From an uncultured Planctomycetales bacterium (lineage in GTDB: Bacteria; Omnitrophota; Gorgyraeia; Zapsychrales; JANLHA01), in contig CAZWOH010000002.1 in the NCBI GenBank assembly GCA_964635405.1, forward strand, positions 1-43,076: 43,076 nt of DNA, read 5' to 3'. This document shows positions 1 to 43,076 of this stretch, piece after piece. A program made the position numbers and the translations under genes. The notes below the pieces were generated by a model. It had not been told where the DNA came from. It saw only the letters and a list, made by a program, of their open reading frames with translations, and made no database searches. Every line of letters starts with the position of its first letter. The first letter of the stretch is position 1.

Positions 1-473
1 CAAAGGCCAAGACGGACGCTGGCATCAACCGAGTGTTGAGATTTGAAGATAGACTATTAGGTTATGACTACGTTGGCATCATCAAGAACCTGCCTGACAT
101 GATCGTTCAGATCGTTTCCGTACCGTTTGACTACGTGATTGATTCCCGAGTGAAATTATGGAATGCAAAAGATAGCTTTGGGGCATGGGCAAAAGCCAAG
201 ACGGACGCTGGCATCAACCGAGTGTTGAGATTTGAAGATAGACTCTTAGGTTATGACTACGTTGGCATCATCAAGAACCTGCCTGACATGATCGTTCAGA
301 TCGTTTCCGTACCGTTTGACTACGTGATTGATTCCCGAGTGAAATTATGGAATGCGAAAGACAGCTTTGGGGTATGGGCAAAGGCCAAGACGGACGCTGG
401 CATCAACCGAGTGTTGAGATTTGAAGATAGACTTTTAGGTTATGACTACGTTGGAATCATCAAGAACCTGCCT
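1..473 (+). repeat. In-frame 189-bp (63-aa) tandem repeat, >=2.5 copies, probably continuing upstream of the window
   Basis: Units lie at nt 6-194, 195-383 and 384-473 (partial; it diverges after ctgcct at 473). Nt 1-5 (caaag) match the tail of a unit (gcaaag), so another copy probably lies upstream. Unit peptide: AKTDAGINRVLRFEDRLLGYDYVGIIKNLPDMIVQIVSVPFDYVIDSRVKLWNAKDSFG(A/V)WAK. Copies 1 and 2 differ at 5 of 189 nt (cta/ctc, gca/gcg, gat/gac, aaa/aag synonymous; gca/gta Ala/Val). Confidence 0.9.
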
Positions 474-3400
474 GTTGTGTTGCGGCTTACTCACAATGCG
501 ATTGTTGACGCTTTTGCTAGATTTTTTGTCTGGCTTGTCCTATTTGTACTCGCGCCGAAAGTTTTTCGTTTAAATAAATTCGATGATTTCATCGCTTTAG
601 TGAAAGCCGTATTTACAAATGTCCAAGGGGACAAAGCTGGAATTTTAAGAGCAATAAGAGTTCTCTACGCTTCTGGCGCTTATAAGAGATTTGGCCAAGG
701 CGAATTAGTTCCGCATTTAATCAAATTATTAGAAGATCATCAGGACAATGCAATTATTCATATTGTTGCTTTAACAAAGATGCATCGCAAGACCCGCTTC
801 GGAGCTTTGAAAGGGCTCTTTAGCAAACTACTTCCTTTAAGTCTTTCAGAAAAATTAAGTCAGACAAAAACAAGAATTATCGTCGATGTCCGCAACATTA
901 AAGGCATCGGCGGCGATCGTGATGAAGAAATTTTTATTAATTTATTGGCACTTTCCGCTAACTTAGGTTTACAGCCGGATCAAATTGAAGTTGTGGCAGA
1001 CAAAGAGCAAAAAGTTTGGCGCTTTAGAAATATTGTTTTGCAATTTAATGATGAAGTTGCCGCTGGCCCGCGCCGCGGGATTTTGTATCTTCCTGAAAAT
1101 CTTCTTTCCAGTCAGGATGTCCTGATTAAGTCTAAGATCACAGAACAAAGTGCTGGCTTAGAAGCTCATCCGGCGACGGCTCCGCCGTCCGACGTAAAAC
1201 ATGAACAAATGGCTGCTTCATCTTCCGTCGTTTTACAACCTGCATTTGCAAAAATTTTAGTCGGCGGTGCGATTGTTTTAATGCTTAGCTCGGGATGGTT
1301 TTTGAGCACATTCCCGGCTCTAGGTTCTTTATGGGTCGCATTAGGTTTTGGCGTTGTTAGTAGTCTTCTTTATCTTGTAAGCCGCAATTCACAATCTCCG
1401 ACGAACGTTGGAATTGCCGCTAAAGTTTTTGGCTTGATGGCCATCACGGTTTTGACGACGGCTGGTCTAAAATCAATCGCATCTATTGCTGGAGTAGGAT
1501 CATTGTTCTTAGGGCAAGCAGCGTTAGCTGTTTTTGCAGGTGCTAGCGTAATTGCGTTGAGTGCATGGGCTATTGGATTCTTTAGCAATACGATTAATGA
1601 AAAAGTTATCAAGAGTTTGCGAATTGTTTCCTATCTTGCGATGCTTTTTGCGATGGTGGCAACGGGGATTTTGATTTTAGGGACAGCTTTCCCGGCGGCG
1701 GAAGGAATCATCGAAGGGTCGATGCTTGAATTGATGATCAGGGTTATCGGCGGTCTCTTGTCATTAGCCATCGTGATTTCGATCTTTAAGGGCGCGTTAC
1801 GGTTGACAACCCAAAACGTGAAAGAATTAAATGTCTATCGTTTAACTAATGAAGAGTTAAATATCCGTTTGCGCTATTACGGTACGCTTTTAGGCAACGC
1901 TGGACTTATTCCGCAAGTGCAGGCGATCATCGATAATTCCGATTTGCAAAAGAAGAGAAACTTCTTAATCGATTTGATGCAACGCGATTTCCAAAACAGC
2001 ATTCGCGCTGTTCAGAGCAAACCGACGCGCTTTGTGCGTATCGAAGCTTTCCGTCAGTGGTTACGTGCAAATCGTATTGAGTTTGCCGAAGAATTTATTG
2101 GCGCCTTGCTCTCGACGCTTAATTTTATTTGGAATATCGCCGGCAAATTCCACTTCACGCAAAATAATTCTGGCATTATCCGCAACTCAATTTTATTTGT
2201 GGTCGCAGTTGGATTGAGTCTTATCCCAGCTTTCTTCTTGTTCCTCGGAGAATTAACGTATAACTTCTTTGCTCGTCATGCGGTGCGCACCTATGAATTT
2301 TTGCGTATGCAGGAAGTTCTCTTAAATGCCTCGCAGCCTACAAAATTGACTGCTCAACAAATCAATGCCGAAAACGCTCGTCGTATTCTTAATGCGCAAA
2401 TTGCGGATGCCAATGTCAACAATAATGGACGTTGGTTGAGAGTCAAACGTGAATGGTTTGCTTTCAGCTTGGCGCATCCGATTATGGCCAATGCTTTGAA
2501 TTTGTTCAAAGGCCGTCTTTTGATCTTTATCGTCGCGGAACCTTTGTCGACGATGGTTAAAGCTCTCGCGGTGGGCTTAAACGGTACAGCTTTAGGAATA
2601 GTTTTAATGCCAATTGTTTTCGCTTTGACTTTAATCTTTCACGTTATTAACGAAATTCTTTTAAGCGTCTTTGGTTTGATCGGTGGAGCTTTGGGAGCAT
2701 TCCTTGTGAGCACAATGCTTTCTCATCGCGCTGATAGCATCGCGCGGGTTTTCCTCATGAGCTTTATATTGTCGTTTATTAGTACAGTCAGAACGATCGT
2801 CCACGCTTTTATGGAATATCGTTATGCCGGCCTCGTTGAAAAGAATAAATTAACAGGATTTAAAGATCAAAAAGGTCGTCCCGTCGCGTCGATTGAACAG
2901 ATTGCTTTAGCCCGCATGATTGAGAATCCAAAAGATTTAGAGAGCTGGATGAATGATGCGGCTGTGCGTCAACAGTTCCTTTCCGGATATCTTTATGCCC
3001 AAGATAGCAGTTTAGCCCGCATGGTTATCGGAAATAATCGTTGGTCAGCGCGAGTCAAGATTTATCTTAGCGAAGGCCGTGGTCGAATTTTGGTCTTTGC
3101 TTTGGCTATTCCTGCGGCGATTTTTATTTATCTTTTAAATACCTTTATTCCGTTTAATTGGATTCATAAAGCTACTGGCAAGCTTTTTGGGACAACAGGT
3201 GCTGGTTACGAAAGAATTGATACGCTTTATCAGCAATTAGGTAATCTGAAACTTGCATTTTGGTCAGGTGTCGTCGGTATGATGACGATCAATGCGGAAA
3301 TCGAAGGCGCGCTTCATTTTGCTGATAAGATCGGCGGGACACCGGGTCAAGTGATCACTTCTTGGGAACGCGATGTTCTTAATATGGGACATGCGTTTAT

Positions 3401-6400
3401 GGGTAATAATTCTCAGGAAGGGCTTTATGGACTTATAACGGCCGGCAATAAATTTATTTATGGCCCCGATGGTTTGGAAGTTGGACCTGCAGTGGTGACC
3501 AATGCCATTTATCGTCAGGCGGGTGTCAATACACAAGAGGCAAATGCAGCGCTTTATTATCAGGCTTACCGCGAAGGCCGTATTTCCAGCTTGCCTCCGA
3601 TTGCTTGGACTTTGGCTAAGGATATGGAAAAAAGAACGCATGCGACATTAACGCAAGAACAATTTGCGCGTGTGCTTATTTCTGCCGGCCTTATCGCTGA
3701 TACACGAGATGCCAATGCTAAGGGTAAGGCGCTAAGTCAAGAAGTGCGCGATTTGATTGATCCACATGTGGTTGATTTGATTGAGACAAAGTACCTTAAT
3801 AATGTCAGCAATCTATTTGAGAGAATTAAGATTGCTATTGGTATTCCAGGGCAAGTAGCTGACGGTGATTTGCTTGCTTCTGCGCAAAAATATAGCCAAG
3901 AAAACGATAAGCCGGTTGTGACCCTGCAGCTTTTCCCCAAGCAAGAGTCTGATGTTCGACAAGGAACCTATTTAGTTGTACGAAATGATAAAGAACAAGA
4001 AGTTTTAGTTGTTTCTGCGAATCGCCATGATCCACTTGGCGTTGTTCCTGCCGCGGGGATTATCGATCAAAATAAGGGTAAAGTTTTCACGGCATTTTTA
4101 GTGATTGATTCAAAGGATTTAGTGTCTGCTTTGATGGCTAAGAATCTCGCAGAAACACCGTTAGCTCAAAGTTTATCGGATATGTACCAGCGTGTTGCCG
4201 AAAAAATGGGCTTTAAGCCCGGCGAGGCTATCATTATGTTGCCGCAGCATGTCGGGTTTGAAAAATTTGCCCAAGCGCTTCAAGGCGAGAAGACAATTGA
4301 AGTCAAAGACAAGGAAGAACTTGAGCCTAAAGAGAAAATTAAACCCGGCGAAGAAGTTAAAAACGGGGAAAAAGAGACTCCAGCGATTGAAAAATCGTTT
4401 AGCCTTAACGATATTATTAAGGGGAATAAATTTGATTCCTGGAGAAGCGTTTATTTAAATATTGACGCTTTTGAAGTGATAAGAATGACATTAGGAAACC
4501 TTGGATTGCCGTTGCGCAATAATACATGGGAAGAATTCCAACGTACTATTTCCGTTTTTGATACAGATAAATCGCTTTCTTTTAAAGAAACTCTTGGAAA
4601 AATAATTAAGTTGGATTCGGACCGCATCGATAGCGAAAAACAAATCGCGAAGTTTAAGGATGTTGACAACAATCAATATGCCAAGAAGTTGTTTGAGCAG
4701 AAGAATCTTCAATATCAGTTGCAGGACGCGAGAGATTTAGCGATTGCGGCAGAAACCAGCAGTTGGGAGAGATTTGTTTTGTGGGTAGGGGAGCTCTTTA
4801 ATACAGCAGAGAGCCAGTTTAGAAATGAATTAAAGAATACTCAAAAAACAATAATAAATCTTGAGCGCACACAAGATGCTCTAAAGATAGCTCTTGCTGC
4901 TAATGTTTCCGTCGAAAATATTCGTAATCTGGGTGCTGAGCATTCTTGGTTTGTTGCGCAAGTTGAGGGCATTAATGTTCTTGAGCCTGCTGGCTATCAA
5001 AGACTTAAATCTACTTTGACTCAACGAACTATCCGAGGGAGCATCTTTATTTTAGATATTGATGAAGATGCCCGGGCAAGCATTATAACGTTGTTAAGCC
5101 ATCAAAACACCGTTGACGATAATTTGTACGCCTTGTTGGATCCTTCAAAGAAGACTGCTGCTAAACCTGCACTTTTAAATGGCTTGCGCTTAGCCATGGT
5201 AAATGCTGCTCAGCAAGAAGAAAAATTATGGAATAGTAATTCATCATTAGCTACGACCATAGCAAAACAAAAAATGCTTGCGGCGAGTGTTAACGCGAAT
5301 GCGATGAGTGTTCATGATTATTTTAATGCTTTGACAAAGAATTCCGATCTTCCGGCTGAGAAATTTGTCGATATGAAAAAGACGGCTTTAGAAAGAATCA
5401 GCAAGACGATAAAAGAACTTAACCTTTCTTCTCAGATGCAGATTGAAGAAACTACTTTTGTTTTAGCTGATATTTATACGAAATTATCTAAGGAATATCA
5501 GAAAAATTTGATGGTCCTTCAAAGCAGTAAAGAAGCTTTATTAAATAGTAATAATGACGAAGAGAAGAAAAATCTGCAGGCCCGCATAACGGGTACGCAC
5601 CAACAATTAGATACAATCGCGCAAGACTTAAAGTTGTTAAATAAATTTAAGAATGAATTAGCCAAGACAAATGTTTATGTTGCAGAAGATATTCTTGGTG
5701 CGCAAGAATTGTACGAATCGGTTGCACAACCGGCCTTGACTGTTTTACTCGATTATGATGCTGGGAAAGTTAGCTTTGCGGATGTCCGCTCAGTATTCTC
5801 AGTGATCAATGCGAAAATCGAATTATTAAATATTAAACATGAAATATTTATTACTAGAAATAAGATCGACAATTTGGAAAAAACGCCAAGCCTCGAGGAA
5901 GCAAATGTTCAAAATCCGAGTTTGTCTAACGCTCGCAATGAAGTTAGAAAGGCAGAAGCTGATGTGGCACGTACACATCTTGCCTGGTTGGAGGCGATAG
6001 TAGCTCAAACAAGTCATGGAAATATCGCTGACCAAAAAGAGCAATCTGCTCGCGTCTCTGATCCAAAAGCAGAAAAATTGTCAGCAGCTCCTTCGTCCCG
6101 CGCTGATGGGGCTGACAGTGCTTATTATGGTGTTGTTAACAGTAATGGTGAGCTTAAAGAAGCAGCAAAAATATTAAAAGACGTCTGGGCTGGCAAGGAC
6201 TCAGAACTTTTGGTTCGCGGCTTAACGTATTCAAAGGTTGTCGGGTCAGATTACAGGAACGGGTTTGATTGGGACAAAAATATTGGCGATATCCAAAAGT
6301 TAAAAGATATGGGTGTTAAAACGATTCGGACGTATTATCCGATCACCTCCGAGCGTTTTCTCAATGAATTAGCCAATCAGGGCATCAAGGCGATTATCGG

Positions 6401-9400
6401 CATTCCTAATTATGATGATCGTTATAATCCAGGCCCGGACATTAGCCGCGGCGGATATAAACATTATATTGAGAAATATAAAAATCATCCTGCAGTTTTA
6501 ATGTGGGAATTTGGGAATGAATACAATTACCATCCGCAATGGTTTAATGGGAATGTTGATCAATGGTATTCCATTTTGGAAAATGCCGCTGGTAATGCAA
6601 AACGCATTGATCCGATGCACAAAGTTTCGACAGCCCACGGTGAAGTTCCTTTAGCTGGTGTTTTACGTCAGGTTCCGTCGGTCGATGTTTGGGGGCTTAA
6701 TGTTTATCGTCCAAATGTTTCGGATGTATTCAGCGATTGGAAAAAAGCGGTTACAGAATCTGCAGCGCGCAAAGACCTGCAATTCTATTTTTCTGAAACA
6801 GGGGTTGATTCATTTGATTGGGCTGAAAGAAAAGAAGATCAGGGTAAGCAAGCTCGTCACATGAAAAATATTTGGAATCAGGTGCAGATGCAAGCTAAGA
6901 CTCAGCCTGGTGTTTTCTTAGGGGTAACATTTATGACTTTTGCGGATGAAAGTTATAAATCGGAAAAATCAGATGACAAAACTGCTTTAGAAAAAACCTC
7001 TTTGTCAGCAAACCGCAACGGACAAAGCAATCGTGAAGATGCGAATTTGGTTATTGCGCAAGAAGCGGTTAGAAATGCGCAGGCGGATGTTGTTCGTGCG
7101 CAGCAGACCAACAAGCAAATAATTCAAGCCCTAGCTGCATTAGAACAAGCTCAAAAACAAGTTCTATTGATTTATCAAAAACGGTTGGATTTAGTAACTG
7201 CTGTCGAAAAGGCACAGAAAGAAGTCCAATTGGCGTTTAACAATGGTGATTTAGCCGCCTACACGAAAGCCACTTTGACGCTCGCTATAAGCGCATATCA
7301 AGCTGGTTTTAGCAATGATCGCGATAAAGCCAATTTGCGTAAGCTACTTATTGAAGGAAGTATTCTTCCGATACTTAACGCACCGATGGTCATTATTGAG
7401 CAGCAGGACATTAAAGCGCTTAGAACGCAATTGCGTGATCAGTTAACTGAGCTTCTTCCGCGTTTATCAATTGACACTTTAATTAAACTTCAGAAAGCAC
7501 GTTCGAGTGAAGATATTCTCAAAGTCGTGATGCACGATTATTCTGGGCTTGATACGGCGACCAAACGGCTGATCGATGAAATTAATACCGTCTTTTATCG
7601 TCTCGAGGGCCGCAATAATATCGGGAATTCTGCTCCGCTTGATCGCAATGAAGCGCTTTTCTTGCCCGGACAAGGCGGAACATTTAGTGAATTAGACAAG
7701 CCGATTATTCCTTTGATTAATGGCGTTATAAAGAGCCGTTTCCCCGATGTTAATGTTCATGATTGGTGGACGAGATTTGCGATTGTCCAAATTCATATTG
7801 AAAGCAATGGTAATGCGTCAGCGGTCAGTTCAGCCAAAGCTCGCGGATTGACTCAGGTTACCGAACCAACATGGAATCGGACAGTGGATTACATGGTTGC
7901 TCAAGGAATTATTCCTAACCGTAATGGCTGGTCATTTGCTGATAATGCCGATAATCCGGTTAAGAATTATATGGTTGGGCATTCGTATCTTGCCATTATT
8001 ATTAAGGAAATTGATCGTAAGTTTGCTGGTAAAGTTTTGACCTTAAGTGAATTTACGAATGCCGTTTCAGCTGCTTACAATGCGGGCGAAAATTATAGCG
8101 CCGCTTTCTATTTAAAACCGACGATTGATGAAACTGTTAAATATGTAGCCAAGGCGGCACATCTTTTAAAACACATGACAACGGATGAAAACGGTCGTAT
8201 CGTTTCTCTGGATGAGGCGGGACGAAAGGTCTTTTTCACTCGAACACTGGCTGCTTTGCGGATCAAATCTGACAGCATTAATAATAAAGATTTTGATCAG
8301 CTTGCCGCCAAGTTCGACGGAACAACCCTTTCTACAGAAGATTCCAGCAATTATAAAATTAAGCCGCAAAGCAGCGATATCGGCCCGCTGCTCGAGATGA
8401 TCGTTCCGCAAAAGTCTGCGGTACGCGCAATCTTAAGCGGTATTGTTACTCAAGTTGCGACTACTCCTTATGGCCAGTATGTCAAAATTTCTTCGATGAT
8501 CAACGGACATCGCGTTGAGCAAATCTTTGCTTATATGGGTGGTGCTTTGAAAGCCGAAAAGGCCTTAGGCCAAGAAGTTAAGGCGGGTGCTTTAATTGGC
8601 ATGTCTGGTTTGCAACAAGGTGCTAATCGTTATCTTTTTGCCCTCAAGATCGACGGCAAAGCGGTTGATGTGATGAGCGTTAATGAAAAAGAAGACGGTT
8701 CTCTAAAAACGATTCGCACGATGGTCGCTAAAGCTGTGCAAGACAATTTTAACGCGCTTACCGGTCGCGCCACGATCAAAGTTATGACACCAGAAGAACG
8801 CGAAGACGCGATGAAAGAAGATTTGGCTAAGATACGTCAAGATGCAGAAGACAGGATGGCTGCTTTAGATTTATTGCGTAATCGCAATGATGCGGAGCGT
8901 CAAGAAGTAGCGCGCAGGAACGCTGCCGTGGATATGGTGCGCGCTATTGCGAATACTGCCCGAACTCATCCCGAAACGGCTTTACATGACATGGTCGAAG
9001 AATTAGCAAAACTTGATGCAACAAGCAATGGAAGACTAGGACACGGTGTTAGTATTCAACTGAGATTTAATCCGGCCGCTCTTGGCTTAAATGTTGGAAT
9101 TGGCCGGCAGGCTGTTTGGGGTGGATTGAATTTATCGCTTGTCGGTACCGGTGAATTCTTTACGCTGGCAGAAGTTGTCATGCAGACAAAGAGTCTTTTA
9201 GGTCCTCCTGCCCCGGGTGTTTCCTCTGCGCAGAGAACGCTTGGCATCTTGTTCTATGTGGATGCCTTAATGAGTGTTTACAATTCATTGGTGGAACGTT
9301 CGCTTAACTTAGAAGAATATGGCGGGATCGGAATGGATCAGGGCACCAATCCGCTCTTTGGACGCACCAAGATTATTGTCAGCCCAGAAATCAAAGGCAA

Positions 9401-36400: not shown

Positions 36401-39400
36401 ACAATTTCGTGTTTTGTTAACGAATTCTGGTGCAAGAATTTTAGGCGATTTGCCGTTTTTCCGTTCTTTGGATGGCACGGATGCTTATTATCATAAGGAA
36501 TATTTTGTGACAGAGCAAGGGCGCATTGTAAGCCCGGGCATTGATAATCAAGTTTGGGGAGATTTAGCAGCGTATGATGAAATTGGTATTGAGAAATGTT
36601 GTTCAGAAGGCCAGATAGATCCAAGGCTTCTTGTGATTATTTATTGGCAGCACATCTTTGAGAGAGTTTTTGATGATCCTGTTCCCAAAATAGCCGGCTG
36701 GCGGCTTGATGCGTTTCATTTTTTTGGGCGTGGTCCTAATGCTCGACGGGTCATTTGGACAAGCCGGCTTTGGGATGATATTGCTTATTATGCACAAAAG
36801 CATAATCTTTTGATGATGACGGAACAATTAGGAGGTGATGACACAGCATATGAAAATCTTAAGAGGTTGGGTTATTGGCAAATGGAAGTTATACGGTCTT
36901 GGGGGAGAGGCAGCACGGTTGAATTTTATTATGGGAGACTATTTGATGCTAGCCGCAAAATTGCTTATACAACGGCCGAAACGCATGATGTACAGCGGTG
37001 GGCGGCAGAATATCTTGAGGACTTTATGCGCTTGGCAAAAACGAACGATAAGGCTCAGGCGCTTGAGCTTTTGGGTCCTGCCTTTTTGGGCTTTTATATT
37101 TTGGGCCCGCGAGCGGAAGCAGTGTTATTAAGTTTGAGTGATATGGCAACTTTAGATCCGATCAAGCGTGAAGTGTATAACGAAAAAGGCATGGTTGTTG
37201 GCTCTCAATGGGGCACAGAAAAGATTGGGTCGGTGGATCTTTCTGAGATGATACGCAGTTGTGTGGATATTAGAGAAAATCATCTTGCGATAAGCCGCTC
37301 TGAAATGATTTATCTTGCGACGGGTGATGTGCACGTGAAGGCTTTTCTTAAGAGATATGAAAGCGATGTTCTTGTGGTCATGGCTAATTTTAGCAATATA
37401 CAGAGACTAGCTCAAATTTCACTTTCAAGTTCGGATTTGGGCTTGGAGTTTCTCAATAGAGATCAGCATTCTGTTGTTGTGCAGATAGAAGATTTGATAA
37501 GTGGGCAGATTTATCCGCCGCAAGACTTGGGATTAGAGAATTGGATAGAATTTAAACCTTTTCTTGTCCCCGGACAGTTGGCGGTGTTTCATATGCAAAA
37601 CAAGTTAACAACCATTGCCGCCTCAGCGGTCAAAGAGGCAACAGCAATTTTTTCCGATAATTCCATACTTTACGAAGCCACACTCCTTAATCAAGTTGTT
37701 TCTTATACCAGAGCTGTTTTAGCCGCAAACGACAATATTCTTGGGACAATGATGTGCTTTGCAGCCTCCTTTTATACTCAAAAAGTAGCTAAAGATTTGA
37801 TAAATGATGACACTAGTATTATTAAAGTACTTAATATTAAACAACTTTTATCATTTCCTACCGCTGCTTCTTTTATGGGACATGCTCTGGTTTTTGTTAT
37901 TTTTAAGGACAGCCAAAGAATATATCTGCTTGACCCAACGATACAGCAATATATTTCTTCGCATGCGGCGTTATTATTAGAACCGCGCAGTGATTTTCAT
38001 GCGAGACTTTATGCGGTCCTTTTGAGCAATGGTTTTGTTCTTTATTCAGGGCATGAAATACAGATTATTGAGATTTATGCGAGAATTATTCGCATGGGTG
38101 TATATGCCAACCCGCAGCAAGTTTCTCGTTTGGTGGAGGATGCTGAAAGTTCGCAAGAACCGGTCTCTTACGACTATCAAAGTTTATTTTTAAATCCTGA
38201 TGTCCAGACGTATTTATCGCTTGTCAAAAATATTTATAATCAATCTTTGAGAGCCGAAGTTCATGGAAAAACTATTCATCAAGCGATGGTGCGAATTTTA
38301 AATAATGCAAAATTATCAGCGCAAGGCAGAGATATTGGCATTTTAGTTGACTTGGCCATCAAAAACGCCAGCGCGCCTGTGACCGGCCCGCCGGCAAGGG
38401 AAATTGTTGGTGCTTTGGCCGCCTCGTTTTTCTTTTTAACGAGCCCCAGTTTTTCTGCATCGTTTTCAAAATCCGTATTGCCAGATTCCGTAGCGCAAAT
38501 CACAGAGTCTCAAAAACAAATCCTTCAAACAGCACTGCCCGGCGTGTTGCCTGCGCTTTCTTTAGCGTTTAAATCGACATCAGATAATAAACCTCAAATG
38601 AGCACAGATTTAGGCCCATTAGTTCTTAATGGCATCGATCCGGATATGTTTAAAAATGTCAGAGAATTGCGCATTATCGCCGCTGGCGGAGGTGGCGATG
38701 TCGATAGCGCGATTCTTCTGGCTTTAGGGTTGCGTCGAATTCTTGGCGAAAATATAAAGATTGTTATTTTTACGACCAACGTCAAACACGCTAAAGAAAA
38801 CCCGATGGGCTGGCCGCTTTCCGTCGGAAATATCATTAATATCAGAACCGGTCAGCCGATTAAGCCTATCCCGGGCACGGAACATTTTTATCGCATTGTC
38901 CCCGGGCTTATTGTTCGAAACGAAATTTTGGATGATACCGACCGACCGTATCACGCACAAGTCCCGCTTTCGGATAGTCAGATGGTTGCTCTTGGGCTTC
39001 CGCAAGGAATTGAACTTCTGATGATCGATGTCAGTCAAAGCGCAAAAGATTTAGCCCAAGATTATTTACGCTCGCAAGGCGATGATGTTAACGCAAAAGA
39101 GCGTGTTCTTATCAGTCTTGATGTCGGCGGGGACAGCCTTGCGCGGTTCCCATACTCAATAACTTCACAGAATAAGCCGACGCATCCGGAGCGGTTTATT
39201 TGCTCGCCGGTGACAGACCTGATTATTTTGAATATGGCACGAGAAATTGAACGCGTTTTAAAAACAAACGTCTTCTGGGCTGTTTCGGCTTTAGGCGGCG
39301 ACGGAGAATCAACGCCGAAGGTGCTTGAGTATATGCGCGAATATTATGCGGAGCAACAGATCGTTGGCGTTTTGGATAATATTCGTTTGTTTAATGAATA

Positions 39401-42400
39401 TATAACCCGTCAAGATGCCCTTGTTTTGTATCAAGCGCTTGCGACGATACCCAGTGAAGTTTCAGGAAACCTTTTAAAACGTCTCTTCGCCATTTCTCGA
39501 CGGCTTGATGAAATTCGTGGATTAGTTGATCGGCAACAAAAGGTAAAACTTGTGCGTTGGGTGATGCGATCGCAATATTCTCAGCAAGGTTTCCATCCTC
39601 AACAAATGTTTGACGCCAATTATATGACACAGGCCCTTGCCCCAACATTGGCAGATTCACTGAGAAATGGGACTCGTCGCGAGTTATTGGCCCGGGCGTA
39701 TCCGTTGACAGTTTTCTTCTGTCCGTCGTCGATTGCGTCAAAAGTTCGCAATCGTGATTTTGGCAACGCTAATTTAAATTGGGAACAAATGGAAAGGGCT
39801 CTGCGGAAATTTGGTTACACGACGGAAGTGTCTGATTCGCAAATGATTCGCGAATTGCAAAAAGAAAAGACTGCTGCAGTTGTCGTTGCCGCCAGTTCGG
39901 TTCTTTTATTAAGAATTTTTGGCGGTAATCAAGAACTTGTTGAGCAATATTTGCAAAATGCCATGGCGACTTTAGATCTAGACAGGCCGCAGGTGGAAAA
40001 CGGAATCTTTGCTCCTTCTTTGGCCGCAGAGAGCCGAAAAGACGCCGATTCCTATATGCAACAGGATTCGGCAGTCGGTCTGTGCTTAGGCGGCGGGACA
40101 GGGATGATTTATCTGATTAATGCACTTCGTGAAGTTTTCCCAAGAGAATATGCAATAAGAGCAGGGCTTGCCGCTATTGATAATGGAGGTTCAAGTCATG
40201 CAATGGCAGAAGGTCTTCAGGCGGCTGGCTTTGGAGTCCCTTATCCTTTCGCGGATCTTCTTAGCCAATTGCAAGCGCTTTCAACTTTGGATAAATCCTA
40301 TCGTATTTTGGATCCGCAGGGCCGCGTGCAAGTAACGACACTAGACTCTAATCTGCCGGAAGTTGACGAAGAAGGTCATGCTCTTAGGGCAGGACAAATT
40401 GTTTTTTATGACGAGAATAATAGCCCTATTTACTTGGAAAATTTTGAGGAACTTATTATTCGTTTACTTGAACGTATCGTCAAAAATTTCTTGCCGAAAC
40501 AACAGTTAAGTGATGATTTTATCTTTTTTGCCATAAGCCTGCTTAATCTTATTGATTTGGTTAAGCCATATATTGAGAAAGGCTATATCAAATTGCCGGG
40601 TTTAAGCATACGAAATCTTTTGCCGATAGCTGTTATGGAATACATGGGGCTTATTGACGTCGATAATCCTAAGTATAAGCAGGGTGCGCGCAAGCTAATT
40701 GTTACTAATCAAAAAGATATGCATCGGCTTGAAAAAGGTCTTGATCTTATCGCGCAGATGATGGGAGTTCGTCAAGGCCGGGTACGGCTTTCGCATCTTT
40801 ATCCCGAGATGGTATATGCGATATATGCGGACTATGTGATTTTAATAGACAATCCAGAAAATCAACAAAAAATTATTCTTTTGGTCCGTCGAGAAAGTAA
40901 AAAATGGCTTGTGCGCGTTTGGGGAGAAGATGCTCAACATTCTGCTAATTTTGCGGGAGAACGTCTTGAAATTTCGTTGACTGACAATTTATCTATATAT
41001 TTTGAGGGCAATTTAAAAGGTTTTATTTTTTCTTTGCAAGCGCAAAATGGGCAGATACAGATATTTCAAGGATCGAAAAAAGCGGTAAGTCTTGTGGTTT
41101 ATAAAAGTAAAAAATATTTGATGTCTGATGACGGAACAGGGAGGCTAAAGCGTCTGGGGGGAAAGGACGCCTCCTATGAAGCTTTAGAAATTAACGGTTA
41201 CAGCGTGTATATTCGCTCCCCGATTATAGTAGGGCAGACGCATATTACAGAGACGGCTAATTATTCCCGTATTGTAGAATTTGGTCTAGCCAGACCCAGA
41301 GGTTCAAACGGTCGAATCACGTATAAACCTGATCCGAAAAGACGCGCGGCAGCTAACAGCGGATTTTTGCAAAGCATACTTTCACCAAATACAAAGTTTA
41401 TAACTTTAGGTCCGGGATCCAGACTTACGAGCAAGAAGATTCATCTTCTTGTCGGCGGCATTTCAGAGGCTTTAGCTGGCCGTTGTAAACGCAGTGATAT
41501 CCCTATTGTTTTATTTTTAGGGCCGACTTTAGATAATGAAAGTTTTGGGGATAGACTTATCATGGTAATTGAGAGGCTGGAAAGAACATTAAGGACGGAT
41601 TTTAATAAAAAACCGATATTTACAGATTTGGTTATTGCTCCTTTGGATACGAGCACGCTCGAATTTGCGTATAGCGTAGTCGGTCCGCAGCCTGTTGGTT
41701 GGTATATCGAGAAATTATTAAACGACGATGACAGTATTAAGCAAGCTGTTATTTCAGATTTAGATTTGCGCTATATACAGATGCTTATCGAAAACTATCG
41801 TGCTCAAGAGCATTTTGGGCAGGCGATTGTGGATATTGATGGCGCAGAGATTTGGTTAGAAGAAGGCTACAGGGCCGTTTCGCTTCGCGATTATCTTACG
41901 TTTAAAATCGCGCAATTTTTAGATTGCGTCAACCAAGAGCCTAAGCCCGAGATACGCCAACCCGGCGATCCTTCCAAGGAAGCCAAAAAGCCGCGCGGTT
42001 CATTTACGCCTTCGCCTGCAGAACTTGTAGAATTTAAAAGACGGTATCCAAATATCCGTGTTTGGACAGATGTTTTTACAACAGGAATTATATTTACGCC
42101 GCCACGCGATCCTCGTCAGCCGCCAGCGCCTAAAATCGGTTACGTTAAACATAATCCAGAGCGTCTGCGAGAACTTTTAAGGCTTCCCGCATCGGAAACG
42201 TCCGTCGCCAGCTCGGGAGTTATTCATAATTTGGCCGCGAATCGTCAAGAGGTCATTGAAACGGCGATCAGTGAGTTTGTCCGCCTTGGCATGGAGTCCG
42301 TCGAAAACACAGATAGCTTTATTGTCCTTCTTCCCGGCGGAAAAACAGCGCGGGATTTTTATTTAGTTTTTGCGGCGCGAGTTAAAGAATTGATGAGTGT

Positions 42401-43076
42401 TAATTTAGATTCCCTCAGCCAAGCCCAAAGAATTGATCGCCAGCATTTAGAAGCCTTATTGCCCCAGACGGTTTTTATTTCTCTTAATACTTCTATCCGC
42501 GACGGAGAGACAGACACACAAACAGTTTGGTTACCCTTACTTGAAATGTTAATGACTTATGGCTTGATCACGCCAGAACAAATTTTGCAGATTGACTATC
42601 GTGGCCCGCAATCCCCAGAGCAAAAAGCTTTGGATTTGCAAAATGCCATTGCGCAAAGACTTAAAATACTCAAAAAAGAGAAAGTGGACTTGGCCCTTGT
42701 CGGTATCGATGAGAATGGCCGCTGGGCTGGAATTGAGCCGCAGGATAATGGCGCGTTGGATTCGAAGCAGATGTATATTCACAGTGAAGAGACAACCCAT
42801 TACACGGTTACCCCCCATTTCATTTTAAATAGAGTCAACCAAGTTATAGGTCTTCTCTCTGGCGGGAATAAGCGTTGGGTGGACATGCATTTAACGACAG
42901 ATAATCCGCCTGATCGGCGCGATGTCCCAGTAGTCGATTTGCGAAATCATCCTCACGCGCTTGTGATTATTGACCAAGAAGCGCGCACTTTTCCGACGGA
43001 AATAATTTCTTATTTCGACTCGGTTAGCGGTCAAAGGCTTGAGACTGAAATTTATTTAAATGCCGCCAGAGGTGTT
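3..43076 (+). CDS. Single giant ORF, partial at both ends (>=14,358 codons); membrane-anchored multi-enzyme megaprotein
   Basis: Hand translation of frame +3 gives only sense codons from nt 3 to nt 43076, with no TAA/TAG/TGA. I checked it codon by codon at nt 3-480, 4440-4500, 17160-17240, 25020-25080, 33000-33060 and 43020-43076. Independent support: no + strand ORF in the supplied track starts at a coordinate = 0 mod 3. That is only possible if this frame has no stop at all, since otherwise ATG..stop pieces would be listed. The other five frames are broken to <=171 aa. Differences between internal repeat copies are almost all synonymous third-position changes in this frame. About 20 enzyme-family signature motifs read in this frame. 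Confidence 0.9.
1242..3160 (+). other. N-proximal membrane region: about 11-12 predicted transmembrane helices in the giant ORF
   Basis: Runs of 19-33 hydrophobic residues, for example:
- AKILVGGAIVLMLSSGWFLSTF (1248-1313)
- ALGSLWVALGFGVVSSLLYLV
- VGIAAKVFGLMAITVLTTAGL
- IAGVGSLFLGQAALAVFAGASVIALSAWAIGFF
- IVSYLAMLFAMVATGILILGTAF
- VIGGLLSLAIVISIF (to ~1790)
- ILFVVAVGLSLIPAFFLFLGEL (~2175-2270)
- LLIFIVAEPLSTMVKALAV
- ALGIVLMPIVFALTLIFHVINEILLSVFGLIGGALGAFLVSTML
- VFLMSFILSFISTV (2511-2810)
- ILVFALAIPAAIFIYLLNTFIPF (3084-3158)
A further weak hydrophobic segment, FFVWLVLFVLAP, lies at ~510-557. Confidence 0.7.
4440..6060 (+). other. Long alpha-helical / coiled-coil-like segment, preceded by a K/E-rich low-complexity linker at ~4287-4395
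   Basis: About 540 aa rich in E/K/Q/L/A/N with few Pro/Gly and heptad-like spacing, e.g. QFRNELKNTQKTIINLERTQDALKIALAAN, LQARITGTHQQLDTIAQDLKLLNKFKNELAKTN and ARNEVRKAEADVARTHLAWLEAIVAQ. The linker peptide is KTIEVKDKEELEPKEKIKPGEEVKNGEKETPAIEK. A second helical stretch lies at ~6990-7450 (AQEAVRNAQADVVRAQQTNKQIIQALAALEQAQKQV). Confidence 0.4.
6120..6960 (+). other. Clan GH-A (TIM-barrel) glycoside hydrolase module, GH17/GH5-like
   Basis: The motif NHPAVLMWEFGNEYNY has the acid/base Glu codon at 6519-6521. The motif YFSETGVDS has the nucleophile Glu codon at 6795-6797, 92 residues downstream. This is the typical clan GH-A NE...E spacing. Flanking strands also fit: GVKTIRTYYP, GIKAIIGIPN and GVTFMTFADESYKSE (GH17-like FxxFDE motif). 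Confidence 0.6.
7730..8170 (+). other. Lytic transglycosylase (SLT / GH23 family 1-like) module
   Basis: The peptide AIVQIHIESNGNASAVSSAKARGLTQVTEPTW has the catalytic Glu codon at 7800-7802 (ES...S..GA.GL.Q motif). It is followed by GHSYLAIIIKEI and SAAYNAGENY (AYNAG motif, nt 8073-8093). Confidence 0.75.
8395..8690 (+). other. Degenerate LytM / peptidase M23-like beta-barrel module (metal ligands not conserved)
   Basis: The peptide AILSGIVTQVATTPYGQYVKISSMINGHRVEQIFAYMGGALKAEKALGQEVKAGALIGMSGLQQGANRYLFALKIDGKAVDV follows the M23 core pattern (G.V....YG..V.I.H......Y.H.....V..G..V..G..IG..G.tG...GPHLHFE....G..VDP). However, RYLFAL replaces HLHFE and no upstream HxxxD motif is seen. Confidence 0.55.
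13010..15305 (+). repeat. Six divergent protein-level tandem repeats of ~126-140 aa (unnamed domain)
   Basis: Anchor motif F[VI]xx[YF]YG occurs at nt 13413 (FVDRYYG), 13791 (FVEKYYG), 14211 (FVNRFYG), 14622 (FIKHFYG) and 15018 (FVENYYG). Spacings are 378, 420, 411 and 396 nt. Each unit continues ...GTVF...F[IV]....G.I.I.GEPV..DGK..W..G.QVFKL.....I.L..G..IPAGTVLE.G. A more degenerate unit precedes them at ~13010-13330 (...AGRIEVTGEAV...QAVFKLKLTRDLVINGVVVLPAGSILESG). Confidence 0.75.
15561..15770 (+). repeat. Copy A of a ~65-aa helical motif (dispersed protein-level repeat)
   Basis: Copy A reads GIITKQQFIDAGLDAEKIINALIDREWMENISETNVRLIQNVEAIRGQLKKLFPADFEKIFSILEQSQ. It aligns with copy B at 16891-17100 through the shared pattern GLD....K.I.N..W.......L.I.........Q....F..DF..I.S...QS. 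Confidence 0.45.
16891..17100 (+). repeat. Copy B of the ~65-aa helical motif
   Basis: Copy B reads VQIKKVGLDWNDVSKKLIENGWATKIEQDKLKIDLEMDLEKKKGQMLAVFGKDFPTILSMIQQSR. The GLD anchor is at 16914-16922 here and at 15594-15602 in copy A. Confidence 0.45.
19308..19425 (+). other. Isolated hydrophobic segment (one long TM helix or a helical hairpin)
   Basis: FALKVLGPGLLWVVAAIFGIPAVYYALIAFALWFYRVVMG has ~32 consecutive apolar residues with a central GIP. It is the first strong hydrophobic run after nt ~3160. Confidence 0.6.
21110..21620 (+). other. TM cluster (about 5-6 helices) preceding the glycosyltransferase module
   Basis: Hydrophobic runs: HYILFGSVTGLFVYLSMHAVGYF, VSASITLPTAMLGVPIFVLLSLLFFGVVLKAI, LWLQIFYGGQLVILAVLFILGISGVAV and IIPVSIVLAIPDAIKQILLFIPYLIFIATWRLSFYAANYFFMGIATWG. 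Confidence 0.7.
21620..23470 (+). other. Soluble (predicted cytoplasmic) processive glycosyltransferase module with GT2-type catalytic motifs and FKS/GT48-like flanking motifs
   Basis: - LLTVDADHRA: D-x-D codons at 23016-23024.
- PLGDVVPVGENAFYF.
- YVAEDIETVLRYRGFGY: ED codons at 23301-23306.
- QARNPTRKWSYDS: (Q)xxRW-like, ~23400-23440.
- WANARSQKRTLTKLYSYYAQMF at 22551-22619, upstream. From memory this resembles the fungal Fks1 / plant callose synthase motif WAS.RSQTL.RT..G.MNY..A. Confidence 0.65.
23510..24320 (+). other. TM cluster (about 7-8 helices) following the glycosyltransferase module
   Basis: Hydrophobic runs: FILDGFGFYF, YIKWLVVFSLILDWNLFSGLALGLWVGALLLSQAISFGLLFY, GFWRGLWLTFKMVSGKMYWFYLYML, AGALWLLVSLVAIGFHPF, VLWILTLLFPLAALIAPYVF, MLAAIPVLGIISGAILWAGSWVLGLAWVELLILYV and VWHILLGFFWGLTDVIMAA. 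Confidence 0.7.
25110..25200 (+). other. Last predicted TM helix in the window
   Basis: TFIALFVYAFMVPMAILTGVLSILKRILVGL. No comparably hydrophobic run occurs between here and nt 43076. Confidence 0.55.
26250..26760 (+). other. DUF218 / YdcF-SanA-ElyC-like module
   Basis: The peptides DLVVAGNDDLNTLRAVVELFSNGVGQRIIILGGFG (26250-26357), ISEAQIIKQIMFQII (26502-) and RIVIEESSTNTLDNYKKYHDFL (26601-26630) match the DUF218 pattern (vvLGg..., sEA..m..., E..S.nT.eN). Confidence 0.5.
27990..28400 (+). other. JAB/MPN (JAMM)-like module, tentative
   Basis: YHWLAWIHTHPYYSNIDH has its HxH codons at 28188-28196, followed by S-x-x-D (SNID). A second SPGD lies at 28308-28319. The spacing is atypical compared with the canonical HxHx7Sx2D. 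Confidence 0.3.
28840..29330 (+). other. SpoT/RelA-type HD (HD_4) phosphohydrolase module
   Basis: SYLVHILDGLLIL has its His at 28929-28931. AIAAFYVHDTGER has its HD at 29007-29012. DLLILVKLADRIQNLLSD has its Asp at 29253-29255. This matches the RelA/SpoT hydrolase pattern H...(24)...HD..ED...(60-70)...vKLADRLhNmR. No adjacent (p)ppGpp synthetase motifs are recognised. Confidence 0.6.
29880..29933 (+). repeat. Copy 1 of a dispersed 54-nt / 18-aa element (GFKQQLTEWLSKFSGAPP)
   Basis: Copy 1 is ggctttaaacaacaattaacagaatggttgtcgaagttctccggcgcgccaccg. Copy 2 (35424-35477) is ggatttaaacaacaattaacagaatggttgtccaagttctccggcgctccgccg. They share 50/54 nt. All 4 differences are synonymous third positions, so the peptides are 18/18 identical. 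Confidence 0.9.
30830..31400 (+). other. HAD-superfamily phosphatase module, subfamily IIB-like (Cof / sugar-phosphate phosphatase type)
   Basis: - Motif I: LVLFDLDDTLSHG (DxD codons 30855-30863).
- Motif II: VVFGINTGA.
- Motif III/IV: NKGKSTLALISKLGIKKQSVIYVADFPGSEDKKQAGIDDSML. Confidence 0.55.
31840..32800 (+). other. Aminoglycoside-phosphotransferase / choline-kinase-fold (protein-kinase-like) small-molecule kinase module
   Basis: RGDLIIKMY has its Lys at ~31974. The Brenner-type motif FVLNHGDWSPWNILVD has the catalytic Asp at 32451-32453 and Asn at 32466-32468. The metal-binding motif LVTGIDGEDILSAPPERDIA has its Asp at 32508-32510. This is the classic APH pattern HGD....N.l....g....iDwe.a....p..Dla. 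Confidence 0.65.
32830..33070 (+). other. CBM48 / AMPK-beta-type glycogen (alpha-glucan) binding module
   Basis: VFRVAIFDSNAHVQIAGSFNNWKPSSVDWQPVTTNTGTLVALEARLSLVAGEYAYKFIIDGRWIADS matches the pattern V.v.GsFnnW......m........f...l.L..G.y.YKF.vDG.W..D. Confidence 0.65.
33170..33760 (+). other. HAD-superfamily phosphatase module, subfamily IA-like
   Basis: - Motif I: VIGFDLDDTLYNS (DxD codons 33195-33203).
- Motif II: IFLLTNNS (~33510).
- Motif III: LKPNPEGF (~33610).
- Motif IV: ILYMGDNLRNDSD (~33680-33706). Confidence 0.65.
35424..35477 (+). repeat. Copy 2 of the dispersed 54-nt / 18-aa element (GFKQQLTEWLSKFSGAPP)
   Basis: See copy 1. The flanks are also related at protein level: QDEEALVA / QDQDAVVE upstream, and a V/I-rich strand ending in SP about 20 aa downstream (VLVVSSP / PVIVSP). 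Confidence 0.9.
35570..35930 (+). other. Probable beta-sandwich (Ig-like / E-set) module immediately upstream of the glucanotransferase
   Basis: Alternating-polarity strand pattern: VPGQEFFVDIVVQTNGSVKQNQLRVELFTNMNHSGSWTPIEVNLENISLISKGKAGHFYHAHVILQARQPGKFAFTARAKISDQKEFVWVGGDATVKV. There is no family-specific motif, so the call rests on composition and position only. Confidence 0.3.
35930..37600 (+). other. GH77-like 4-alpha-glucanotransferase (amylomaltase / disproportionating-enzyme-like) module
   Basis: - FFLSPFFPTSNVSPFSAVSVYVLNPALIDW (36058-36150; compare the GH77 pattern P......SPYs..S.fa.NP.lID).
- ARILGDLPFF (36438-36461).
- AGWRLDAFHFF, nucleophile-position Asp at 36708-36710.
- LLMMTEQLGG, acid/base-position Glu at 36822-36824.
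- TAETHDVQRW, third carboxylate at 36987-36989. Confidence 0.65.
37640..38050 (+). other. Transglutaminase-like / papain-fold module with a Cys-His-Asp triad pattern
   Basis: GTMMCFAASFY has its Cys at 37755-37757. SFMGHALVFVIF has its His at 37881-37883, 42 aa later. RIYLLDPT has its Asp at 37932-37934, 17 aa after the His. This fits the transglutaminase-core pattern G.C..fa......(~40)..HaW.ev.....(~15)..Dpt. Confidence 0.45.
38640..39350 (+). other. DUF1152-like module (tentative)
   Basis: LRIIAAGGGGDVDSAILLALGL (~38670-38735), VLISLDVGGDSLARFP (~39103-39150), FICSPVTDLIILNMA and AVSALGGDGES (~39280-39312). From memory, the GGGGD ... DvGGD ... SP.aD pattern matches Pfam DUF1152. Confidence 0.35.
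40070..41560 (+). other. YvcK / CofD (UPF0052, 2-phospho-L-lactate-transferase-like) module with a large internal insertion
   Basis: GLCLGGGTGMIYLINAL (GGGTG at 40089-40103), LAAIDNGGSSHAM (~40170-40210; compare YvcK tVaDDGGSSGrL) and KFITLGPGSRLTSKKIHLLVGGISEAL (GPGS..TS at 41409-41432; compare iviGPGSLYTSvlPnLlv). The two halves are ~400 aa apart, against roughly 190 aa between the corresponding motifs in B. subtilis YvcK as I recall it. Confidence 0.65.
42230..43076 (+). other. NagB / 6-phosphogluconolactonase-like (sugar-phosphate isomerase fold) module, cut by the window edge
   Basis: Matches to E. coli NagB as recalled:
- FIVLLPGGKTARDFY (~42320-42365), against l.lPtGgTP...Y.
- VDLALVGIDENGRWAGIEP (42686-42740), against GG.G.DGHIAFNEP.
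- QVIGLLSGGNKRW.
- LRNHPHALVIIDQEA, against LQLHPKAIMVCDE.
The catalytic-position His is Arg here. Confidence 0.55.

Follow-up and report, generated by a model that had tools for sequence, protein, structure and literature searches.

The DNA analysed here, called the window below, is a stretch of 43,076 nucleotides (nt) that starts at position 1 of contig CAZWOH010000002.1 (assembly GCA_964635405.1), deposited as an uncultured Planctomycetales bacterium and placed among the Omnitrophota by GTDB. It is taken up by a single reading frame that codes for part of a giant protein composed of many unrelated, enzyme-like modules. Frame +3 runs from nt 3 to 43,076 through 14,358 codons with no stop and is open at both window ends; an earlier interpretation based on the letters and translations only (hereafter the sequence-only reading) had described one giant ORF at nt 3–43,076. 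The other five frames contain 595 to 1,348 stops each, and the longest off-frame open reading frame (ORF) has 171 amino acids (aa). At 42% G+C, a run of 14,358 stop-free codons excludes chance. The G+C contents of the three codon positions follow the order GC1 > GC3 > GC2, with purine-rich first positions, in every 3-kb slice. Furthermore, the ratio of nonsynonymous to synonymous substitution rates (dN/dS) relative to an orthologue in the contig that we call L002 is 0.11–0.34 in each 400-codon window of aa 1–4960, including the parts that are dark to Pfam. The window is thus one reading frame under purifying selection. It was also scanned for tRNA and Rfam families, and none was found. The 171-aa ORF is the sole off-frame ORF of at least 150 aa; it has a TTG start, runs on the minus strand at nt 34,145–34,660, opposite the stretch of the giant ORF that separates the HAD and GH77 modules described below, and is most likely spurious.

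To assign modules, we used tiled hmmscan searches against Pfam and NCBIfam, phmmer searches against PDB sequences, and comparisons of homologue-built profiles with PDB. Transmembrane (TM)-like segments were defined as Kyte–Doolittle 19-mers above 1.6, and the helices are putative in number and orientation. Four parts follow one another along the protein. A 63-aa tandem repeat leads into a first TM-like cluster (nt 498–3143, aa 166–1047). Next comes a cysteine-free stretch of ~5,400 aa with GH158-like, SLT and degenerate LytM modules, conserved blocks and five alpha/beta repeats. A second TM region (nt 19,320–25,196, aa 6440–8398), delineated by hydropathy, homologues and a profile, embeds an FKS/BcsA-like processive glucan synthase. 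The last part is a tail of at least ~6,000 aa with DUF218-like, MESH1/SpoT HD, HAD, APH kinase, CBM48, GH77, DUF1152, CofD/YvcK and Pgl/NagB modules. Several isolated hydrophobic 19-mers are also found outside the two TM clusters.

The cysteine-free stretch harbours three modules of the kinds that act on cell walls. The first is a glycoside hydrolase (GH) of clan GH-A (nt 6198–6974, aa 2066–2324). Its nearest family is GH158, which phmmer detects among PDB sequences with an E-value of 1.3e-6; at the profile level the E-values are 1.1e-15 for GH158, 1e-8 for GH2 and 3e-5 for GH72. The catalytic motifs WEFGNEYN and SETG are invariant, with both catalytic glutamates conserved. These matches place the module in GH158, the clan GH-A endo-beta-1,3-glucanase family, and its substrate is predicted from sequence. 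The second module is an SLT family-1 lytic transglycosylase (nt 7770–8102, aa 2597–2697; Pfam SLT, E 5e-12, 45.8 bits) with intact ES...GLTQ...AYNAG motifs. The third, at nt 8400–8669, resembles LytM/peptidase M23. A motif search of this module found neither the HxxxD nor the HxH zinc ligands, and we therefore regard it as degenerate, in agreement with the sequence-only reading; its family score is marginal (Pfam M23, E 5.6e-6, 26.9 bits versus a gathering score of 28.7).

The synthase module embedded in the second TM region spans aa ~7650–8070 (nt 22,944–24,206). It comprises a glycosyltransferase (GT) core at aa ~7650–7860 (nt 22,944–23,582), followed by TM helices, and VDAD and AEDI motifs are present. 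The window sequence scores below threshold against Pfam Glucan_synthase (PF02364; E 0.4), and its homologue in locus L012 (aa 2334–2592) matches this FKS family (GT48) at E 1e-11 to 1e-14, with 44–54 bits versus a cutoff of 37.2. A four-sequence profile (A4) retrieved GSC2/FKS1 from PDB at E 1.5e-9 and BcsA (GT2) at 2e-5, across the GT core and the TM helices. These matches bear out the polysaccharide synthase that had been called by eye. Two other homologues are found in L003 (aa 5673–5876) and L022 (aa 4407–4797). All three were recovered only with the HMMER filters off; a 1,200-aa query with the synthase region gave no match, which was traced, at least locally, to the HMMER bias filter and its removal of TM-rich sequence. 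A single-sequence AlphaFold2 (AF2) model of aa 7501–8100 was not usable, with a predicted local distance difference test (pLDDT) score of 41. The window synthase shares with FKS1/GSC2 and BcsA a GT-A core followed by TM helices, and its profile aligns to FKS1 residues ~1080–1512, with Asp- and ED-containing motifs at aligned positions. In contrast with these enzymes, it forms part of a giant protein, and the window revealed no regulatory part of the Rho1 or c-di-GMP (PilZ) type. A putative FKS-type synthase is found in a bacterium, in the same polypeptide as a GH158-like module, and the matches to eukaryotic FKS1/GSC2 outrank those to BcsA.

The tail begins with a DUF218-like module (nt 26,145–27,137, aa 8715–9045). 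The window matches DUF218 at E 0.06, two homologues do so at about 3e-5, and a match to YdcF in PDB is not significant (E 0.19). An exhaustive search identified ~23 homologues of this module, mostly in long proteins. It is followed by an HD module (nt 28,620–29,537, aa 9540–9845) that has no Pfam match in the window. A profile (A1) built from nine homologues collected by exhaustive HMMER searches matches MESH1 at E 1.6e-14, in addition to RelA/SpoT hydrolases. The H..H, HD and E motifs are invariant in the alignment, and the window has 'GER' where its relatives have 'ED'. By sequence, the module belongs to the MESH1/SpoT type, with (p)ppGpp as its predicted substrate.

Further downstream, an APH-fold (aminoglycoside-phosphotransferase-like) kinase at nt 31,920–32,642 is supported by Pfam APH (aa 10808–10874, E 2.6e-6, 27.8 bits) and has the beta3 Lys, HGDWSPWN and IDGED motifs. 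Next to it is a CBM48/AMPK-beta glycogen-binding module (nt 32,859–33,041, aa 10955–11012; Pfam AMPK1_CBM, E 1.6e-6), which also matches the AMPK beta CBM in PDB. A HAD-IA phosphatase module lies at nt 33,177–33,734 (HAD_2 at aa 11064–11243, E 1.9e-19; TIGR02253, E 4.5e-21; PH1655 in PDB). A 4-alpha-glucanotransferase-like GH77 module with an amylase-C-like tail occupies nt 36,063–37,427. Its Pfam match (E 2e-8) covers aa 12021–12082, with more pieces up to aa 12172, and NCBIfam returned 4-alpha-glucanotransferase (1e-5) and treS_nterm (1.5e-4); the motifs RLDAFH, TEQLG and THD are present. The last three modules are DUF1152 (nt 39,006–39,476, aa 13002–13158; E 8e-9, 35.6 bits), a weak CofD/YvcK-like module (nt 40,086–41,480) and a 6-phosphogluconolactonase/NagB-like module (nt 42,240–42,986, aa 14080–14303; Glucosamine_iso, E 1.8e-7, 31.7 bits; NCBIfam pgl, E 1e-4). 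The CofD/YvcK-like module consists of two colinear pieces with marginal matches, to NCBIfam YvcK (aa 13362–13428, E 1e-4) and to Pfam CofD (aa 13784–13826, E 0.004).

Seven families score above their Pfam gathering thresholds in the window, namely SLT, APH, AMPK1_CBM/CBM48, HAD_2, GH77, DUF1152 and Glucosamine_iso/Pgl, all of which the sequence-only reading had named. The GH-A and SpoT-type HD modules that it had also listed are backed by their profiles. Its DUF218 and YvcK/CofD calls have marginal matches only, and of its two HADs the first is firmly identified. For the second, at nt 30,840–31,322, we found motifs I to IV in the right order from aa 10282 (LVLFDLDDTL, GINTG, KGKS and VADFPGSEDKK), with no HMM (hidden Markov model) support from Pfam or NCBIfam and no PDB match; it is thus a possible HAD at the motif level. 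Two calls found no support. The JAB-like module has no HMM or PDB match, no JAMM motif occurs anywhere, and aa 9050–9540 have no homologue; the transglutaminase-like fold likewise has no HMM or PDB match and comes down to an isolated 'MMCFAASF' at C12585. Altogether 13 of the 16 module types have HMM or profile support, and no single adhesin-type fold dominates the ORF. The description of the protein as a non-repetitive, operon-like mosaic is therefore supported. Nevertheless, the number of families has to be lowered from about 20 to ~13, each present once (HAD possibly twice) and together covering ~23.5% of the residues. Three quarters of the protein cannot be assigned to any enzyme family, which limits this description. 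The catalytic motifs of GH-A, SLT, HD, APH, GH77 and HAD are intact, which argues that these modules are not decayed relics.

We then collected relatives by scanning contigs with the GH-A alignment, which yielded 340 related loci, fetched as 20-kb stretches. Two contigs of study SRP278252, from metagenome-assembled genomes (MAGs) labelled 'uncultured Planctomycetales' (SRP278252_co1_54 and SRP278252_co1_150), are orthologous to the window. L002 is colinear with it at 81% identity over aa 1–3405 and 61% identical over aa 3872–5027, and L001 is 70% identical over aa 1450–3300. The next relatives come mostly from Candidatus Omnitrophota MAGs, interleaved with others labelled 'Planctomycetales', and their GH-A modules are 38–58% identical to that of the window. 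In those MAGs the GH-A module sits in frames that continue without a stop from one end of the fetched locus to the other, for as many as 6,921 codons. In Bacteroidota and other bacteria, it is a standalone ORF of 420–450 aa. This occurrence as a separate gene, for which the sequence-only reading had suggested looking, directly supports the likeness to an operon fused into one ORF, as do the sharing of single modules by long relatives, the varying module order and the preserved catalytic motifs in most modules. Long proteins with a DUF218-like or HD module share that single module with the window, and the named owners of these relatives are Candidatus Omnitrophica and Endomicrobiales.

The order of the modules differs between giant ORFs, a comparison that the sequence-only reading had called for. 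In L004, L005, L006 and L009, SLT and the degenerate LytM are followed by two conserved blocks (Y, then X) and then by GH-A, and in L008/P0002 GH-A comes directly after block X. In contrast, GH-A precedes SLT in the window and its orthologues. The spacing from GH-A to the synthase is ~2,000 aa in L003, L012 and L022 versus 5,500 aa in the window. Judging from these alignments, the gene evolves by module movement and replacement between lineages.

A large part of the conservation among these loci falls in blocks without an assigned family. Those at aa 2904–3454 and 3574–3748 (nt 8712–11,246), of unknown fold, are common to L004, L005, L006, L009 and L011, and profile A10, built from a block within this interval, found no relative in PDB. 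The block at aa 3810–4307 (nt 11,430–12,923), also of unknown fold, is 47% identical to P0002/L008, where it stands directly before GH-A, and occurs in L002, L004, L006, L009, L014 and L017 as well; its profile (A9) likewise had no relative in PDB. A further block of unknown function, at aa 5750–6336 (nt 17,250–19,010), is common to L024, L017 and L009. None of the conserved blocks between the TM clusters has a relative in Pfam or PDB. A ~75-aa small helical domain occurs twice in the window, at nt 15,555–15,782 and 16,881–17,090 (aa 5185–5260 and 5627–5696, within nt 15,555–17,090), as detected by self-BLAST and phmmer, and once each in L004 (aa 2788–2863) and L009 (aa 323–388); it could not be assigned to a family.

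The blocks at aa 2904–3454 and 3574–3748 span most of a hypervariable segment (aa ~2900–3870, nt 8700–11,600). Identity to L002 falls sharply at its start, between aa 2900 and 3020, from ~0.9 to 0.22–0.49, and dS rises at the same step from 0.13–0.38 to at least 0.9. In this comparison (aa 3028–4617 of L002), L002 has ~1,080 aa in place of ~470 aa of the window. Such a hypervariable or replaced segment in an otherwise close orthologue suggests intragenic recombination.

Repeats are a small part of the protein (~6%), as had been proposed, and are located only at aa 1–158 and 4359–5115. The first array is a tandem repeat of 63 aa (189 nt) at nt 1–474, detected with TRF (Tandem Repeats Finder). 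It is the only DNA tandem repeat in the window, with 2.5 copies at 97% identity, and is cut by the window start. The contig of L002 also starts inside this 189-nt repeat (nt 3–665 of L002), with two copies more than the window. An assembly break at the repeat combined with copy-number variation probably accounts for this shared start, and the true N-terminus lies upstream of both. Self-BLAST showed a single sizeable protein repeat, at aa 4208–5102. HMM-defined units place five full copies of ~130 aa at aa 4359–5021 (nt 13,077–15,065), with a partial sixth that ends at nt 15,347 (aa 5115). The sequence-only reading, with six units at nt 13,010–15,305, agrees with this location.

An AF2 model of a single ~130-aa unit, computed from an alignment of the six in-window rows only, has a pLDDT of 87.7 and is predicted to have a beta-rich first half followed by four helices. 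With this model, Foldseek gave no match at E ≤ 1e-3 in PDB or BFVD; having no structural neighbour in PDB, the unit does not belong to the Ig, cadherin or RTX types of adhesin repeat. Of the loci collected here, only the window and L002 (aa 5108–5772) carry it. West-Roberts et al. (10.1101/2023.11.21.568195) predicted a 'beta-helix with exterior helices', which the modelled beta-plus-helix make-up of the unit resembles; we take this as a lead only.

The distribution of cysteines divides the protein. All 19 of them are at or beyond aa 8973, and aa 1–8972 (nt 3–26,918) are devoid of any. At the rate of the C-terminal part, ~32 would be expected in this zone (P about 2e-14). Depletion is shared by the relatives: L001, L002, L006 and L008 have no cysteine, and L004 and L005 have one each over ~6,900 aa. 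The boundary falls inside the DUF218-like module, away from the TM segments. Since the cysteine-free zone takes in the presumably cytoplasmic GT core of the synthase, its simple explanation as the exported part of the protein is incomplete.

Giant genes of this general kind are on record. ORFs above 20 kb with few annotated domains are found in most classes of Omnitrophota (Seymour et al. 2023, PMC10066038). West-Roberts et al. (10.1101/2023.11.21.568195) described 'Archaeovorins', giant proteins rich in TM segments that carry domains of the GT, GH, peptidase, SLT and sugar-metabolism types and that they read as tools to digest the cell walls of prey, the type example being a 39,678-aa protein of Velamenicoccus archaeovorus. 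Nielsen & Lui (10.64898/2026.06.07.730766) defined 'multi-enzyme metabolic clusters' as class 1 of the Omnitrophota proteins of at least 10 kAA (thousand amino acids). These proteins combine many distinct Pfams in one polypeptide, HAD and HD being common; 94% of them are targeted to the membrane, and sequence singletons make up 80%. Loci resembling type II secretion systems and loci for sugar import are reported beside giant genes of this sort.

The window resembles the Archaeovorins in being a giant single ORF with many TM segments, sparse divergent Pfam domains and large unannotated stretches with periodic predicted structure. It also unites GH, GT, peptidase-like, SLT and sugar-metabolism enzymes in one polypeptide, and the closest named relatives of its modules are from Omnitrophota MAGs. 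In contrast with the Archaeovorins, it has no SecA_DEAD, methyltransferase, NUDIX, HEAT/TPR, GT5/GT1 or glycolytic-enzyme domains, and the GH158-like, FKS-like synthase, MESH1-type HD, APH kinase, CBM48, GH77, DUF1152, CofD and Pgl set is not reported by West-Roberts et al. With class 1 clusters it shares the tiling of one polypeptide by many Pfam families, none dominant by copy number, as well as HAD (PF13419) and HD content, sugar metabolism and a membrane-anchored architecture. That class was defined on whole proteins of complete genomes, whereas the window is a fragment. With at least 14,358 codons in a single ORF, many enzyme families of which none dominates, and numerous TM helices by hydropathy, the window fits in these respects the descriptions of the Omnitrophota giant multi-enzyme proteins of at least 10,000 aa. 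As the architecture has been published in both preprints, the kind of object is real and not new. Neither preprint mentions an FKS-type glucan synthase or cysteine depletion.

Other types of very large proteins resemble the window in size only, whether repeat-type giants (Ig/cadherin/RTX adhesins and the Dockerin/TSP3-type giants of Omnitrophota) or the nonribosomal peptide synthetase (NRPS) and polyketide synthase (PKS) megasynthases. We rejected an NRPS/PKS megasynthase, since no AMP-binding, condensation, ketosynthase or PP-binding domain was found in Pfam at E ≤ 5 and none in NCBIfam, in line with the lack of adenylation, condensation, ketosynthase and carrier-protein motifs noted by eye. 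A repeat adhesin was rejected on the basis of the small proportion of repeats, the lack of adhesin families and the repeat model without PDB match; Ig, cadherin, RTX, dockerin, discoidin and laminin-G have no Pfam matches in the window at E ≤ 5.

Based on these analyses, we consider it likely that the window represents an inner portion (at least 14,358 aa) of a giant gene of the Omnitrophota/PVC type that belongs to the 'Archaeovorin' or 'multi-enzyme metabolic cluster' class. Omnitrophota are tiny and probably predatory bacteria. In the proposed arrangement, the giant protein would be anchored in the cytoplasmic membrane, with the section at aa ~1050–6440 facing outward, where its murein- and glucan-cutting modules would act on a cell wall, be it that of a prey, of a host or of the cell itself. 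The FKS/BcsA-like synthase would extrude beta-glucan. Such a topology predicts that the helices are odd in number from aa 6440 to 7192 and even in number from aa 7860 to 8398. The tail from aa ~8400 would be cytoplasmic and handle alpha-glucan and sugar phosphates by way of the CBM48, GH77, APH-type kinase, HAD, Pgl/NagB and YvcK-like modules, with the HD module perhaps taking part in alarmone turnover. In a very small cell, fusion would keep the modules together and at a fixed stoichiometry, in place of an operon plus a scaffold.

Several points weigh against this assignment. About 76% of the residues have no assigned family, and the window lacks the methyltransferase and NUDIX domains that typify Archaeovorins. 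SecA_DEAD and an N-terminal C39 or S8 peptidase, hallmarks reported for full-length giants, were not found within the window, and both termini of the gene lie beyond it. 'Giant' in West-Roberts et al. means more than 30,000 aa, versus at least 14,358 aa in the fragment at hand. The C-terminal third gave no relative at E ≤ 1e-5 with a 5,000-aa query, nor did a metagenome scan with aa 10560–14358, so that its continuity with the rest is without independent confirmation; the fact that most class 1 proteins are sequence singletons fits this absence of relatives. Both orthologous MAGs carry the label 'uncultured Planctomycetales' instead of Omnitrophota. The presumably cytoplasmic GT domain of the synthase lies within the cysteine-free zone, which therefore has no clean match to 'outside'. 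Lastly, we infer the topology from hydropathy and the usual working place of such enzymes. The same applies to the three classes of modules of the sequence-only reading (envelope hydrolases, a polysaccharide synthase and cytoplasmic modules), most enzyme types of which are supported, the three compartments being putative.

Other explanations bear on how the protein works. It might be a polyprotein, a precursor cut by proteases into ordinary-sized enzymes and membrane proteins that would work separately, with fusion serving expression and delivery rather than the activity of one molecule. West-Roberts et al. (10.1101/2023.11.21.568195) proposed this because full-length giants have C39 and S8 peptidase domains near their N-termini, and the discreteness of the modules, their preserved catalytic motifs and their standalone counterparts elsewhere agree with it. 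However, the degenerate M23 is the only protease domain in the window, which also shows no recurring cleavage-like linker, the only recurring peptide being the 18-aa GFKQQLTEWLSKFSGAPP, found twice. We regard processing as unlikely, though well worth keeping in mind, and it is compatible with the giant-gene assignment rather than exclusive of it. Quite improbable, in our view, is a surface coat or adhesin whose enzyme-like domains mainly bind the host cell, a role that has been suggested for giant ORFs in Omnitrophia, Patescibacteria and Nanohaloarchaeota. The degenerate LytM, the repeat array and the large conserved blocks of unknown fold would suit such a protein, and the literature favours adhesion for many giant ORFs. 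Nevertheless, the few repeats have a fold unlike any known adhesin, adhesin families are missing as described above, the catalytic residues are intact in GH-A, SLT, HD, APH and GH77, and a long tail of nucleotide and sugar-phosphate enzymes would make no sense outside the cell. It is also rather doubtful that the protein is a self-contained, trans-envelope 'glycan conversion line', in which the FKS (GT48)-like synthase would be coupled to the GH158-type beta-1,3-glucanase, with murein cutters outside and alpha-glucan and sugar-phosphate enzymes plus an alarmone hydrolase inside.

Two further alternatives concern the source of the DNA. The gene might come from Planctomycetota rather than Omnitrophota and belong to a distinct set of giant genes that has received less study. 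Both orthologous contigs and the loci L005–L007, L011 and L059 are labelled 'uncultured Planctomycetales bacterium', and proteins of at least 10,000 aa have been reported in that phylum. These labels are nevertheless automatic names of third-party MAGs, the GH-A identities of the two groups interleave (52–58% in both), multi-module blocks are common to both, and the named DUF218-like relatives are from Candidatus Omnitrophica; we thus find a planctomycetal source rather improbable. An assembly chimera or artefact, made of mis-joined genes or an accidentally open frame, could be suspected because the window and L002 both begin within a tandem repeat, where assemblies typically break, and because the C-terminal third has no independent relative. 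However, a frame of this length is beyond chance, a chimeric join rarely keeps the frame, codon statistics do not vary along the ORF, and the part that could be compared is under purifying selection throughout. Furthermore, two contigs of the same SRP278252 co-assembly, in different bins, are colinear with the window over aa 1–3405 and 3872–5027 and over aa 1450–3300. An artefact is therefore hardly credible, and the internal fragment of an Omnitrophota-type giant gene remains our preferred interpretation.

Few large objects in bacterial genomes are as poorly understood as the giant genes of Omnitrophota: do their products act as a single molecule, how are they inserted into the membrane, and what do they do to a host cell? 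The fragment opens no new category. It is a well-resolved example with a clear bipartite layout, in which wall-degrading modules are followed by a membrane synthase and then by metabolic enzymes, and it offers intact motifs in most modules, direct evidence of module movement and a standalone counterpart in Bacteroidota. Three leads emerge, namely the bacterial FKS-like synthase beside a GH158-like glucanase, the cysteine-free section of 9,000 residues, and a confidently modelled repeat fold without known neighbour. If the conversion line were real, the eukaryotic FKS/callose synthase family would have close bacterial relatives in Omnitrophota-type giants, and these giants would build or remodel a beta-1,3-glucan structure, e.g. 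an attachment matrix, as part of living with a host. On that view, both the lack of cysteine in the first 9,000 residues and the neighbourless repeat fold would reflect adaptation of the exported part.

The recurring peptide mentioned above is encoded by an 85-nt direct repeat at nt 29,849–29,933 and 35,393–35,477. The copies agree at 82% of their positions, a value that rises to 94% in a core of 54 nt, and lie 5,544 nt apart, i.e. 1,848 codons in frame. Both code for the same 18 residues, at aa 9960 and 11808, and they flank the block formed by the possible second HAD, APH, CBM48 and the HAD-IA phosphatase. This repeat could be a recombination scar, or else a recurring linker or docking peptide. 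Finally, two of the related loci, L009 and L023, are on a single contig, JADFXT010000008.1 (114,756 nt), of Candidatus Omnitrophota nDJH15bin6. Their GH-A modules are ~45 kb apart on the same strand, and no stop interrupts either frame within its 20-kb locus, so that one ORF of more than 66 kb may contain both modules.

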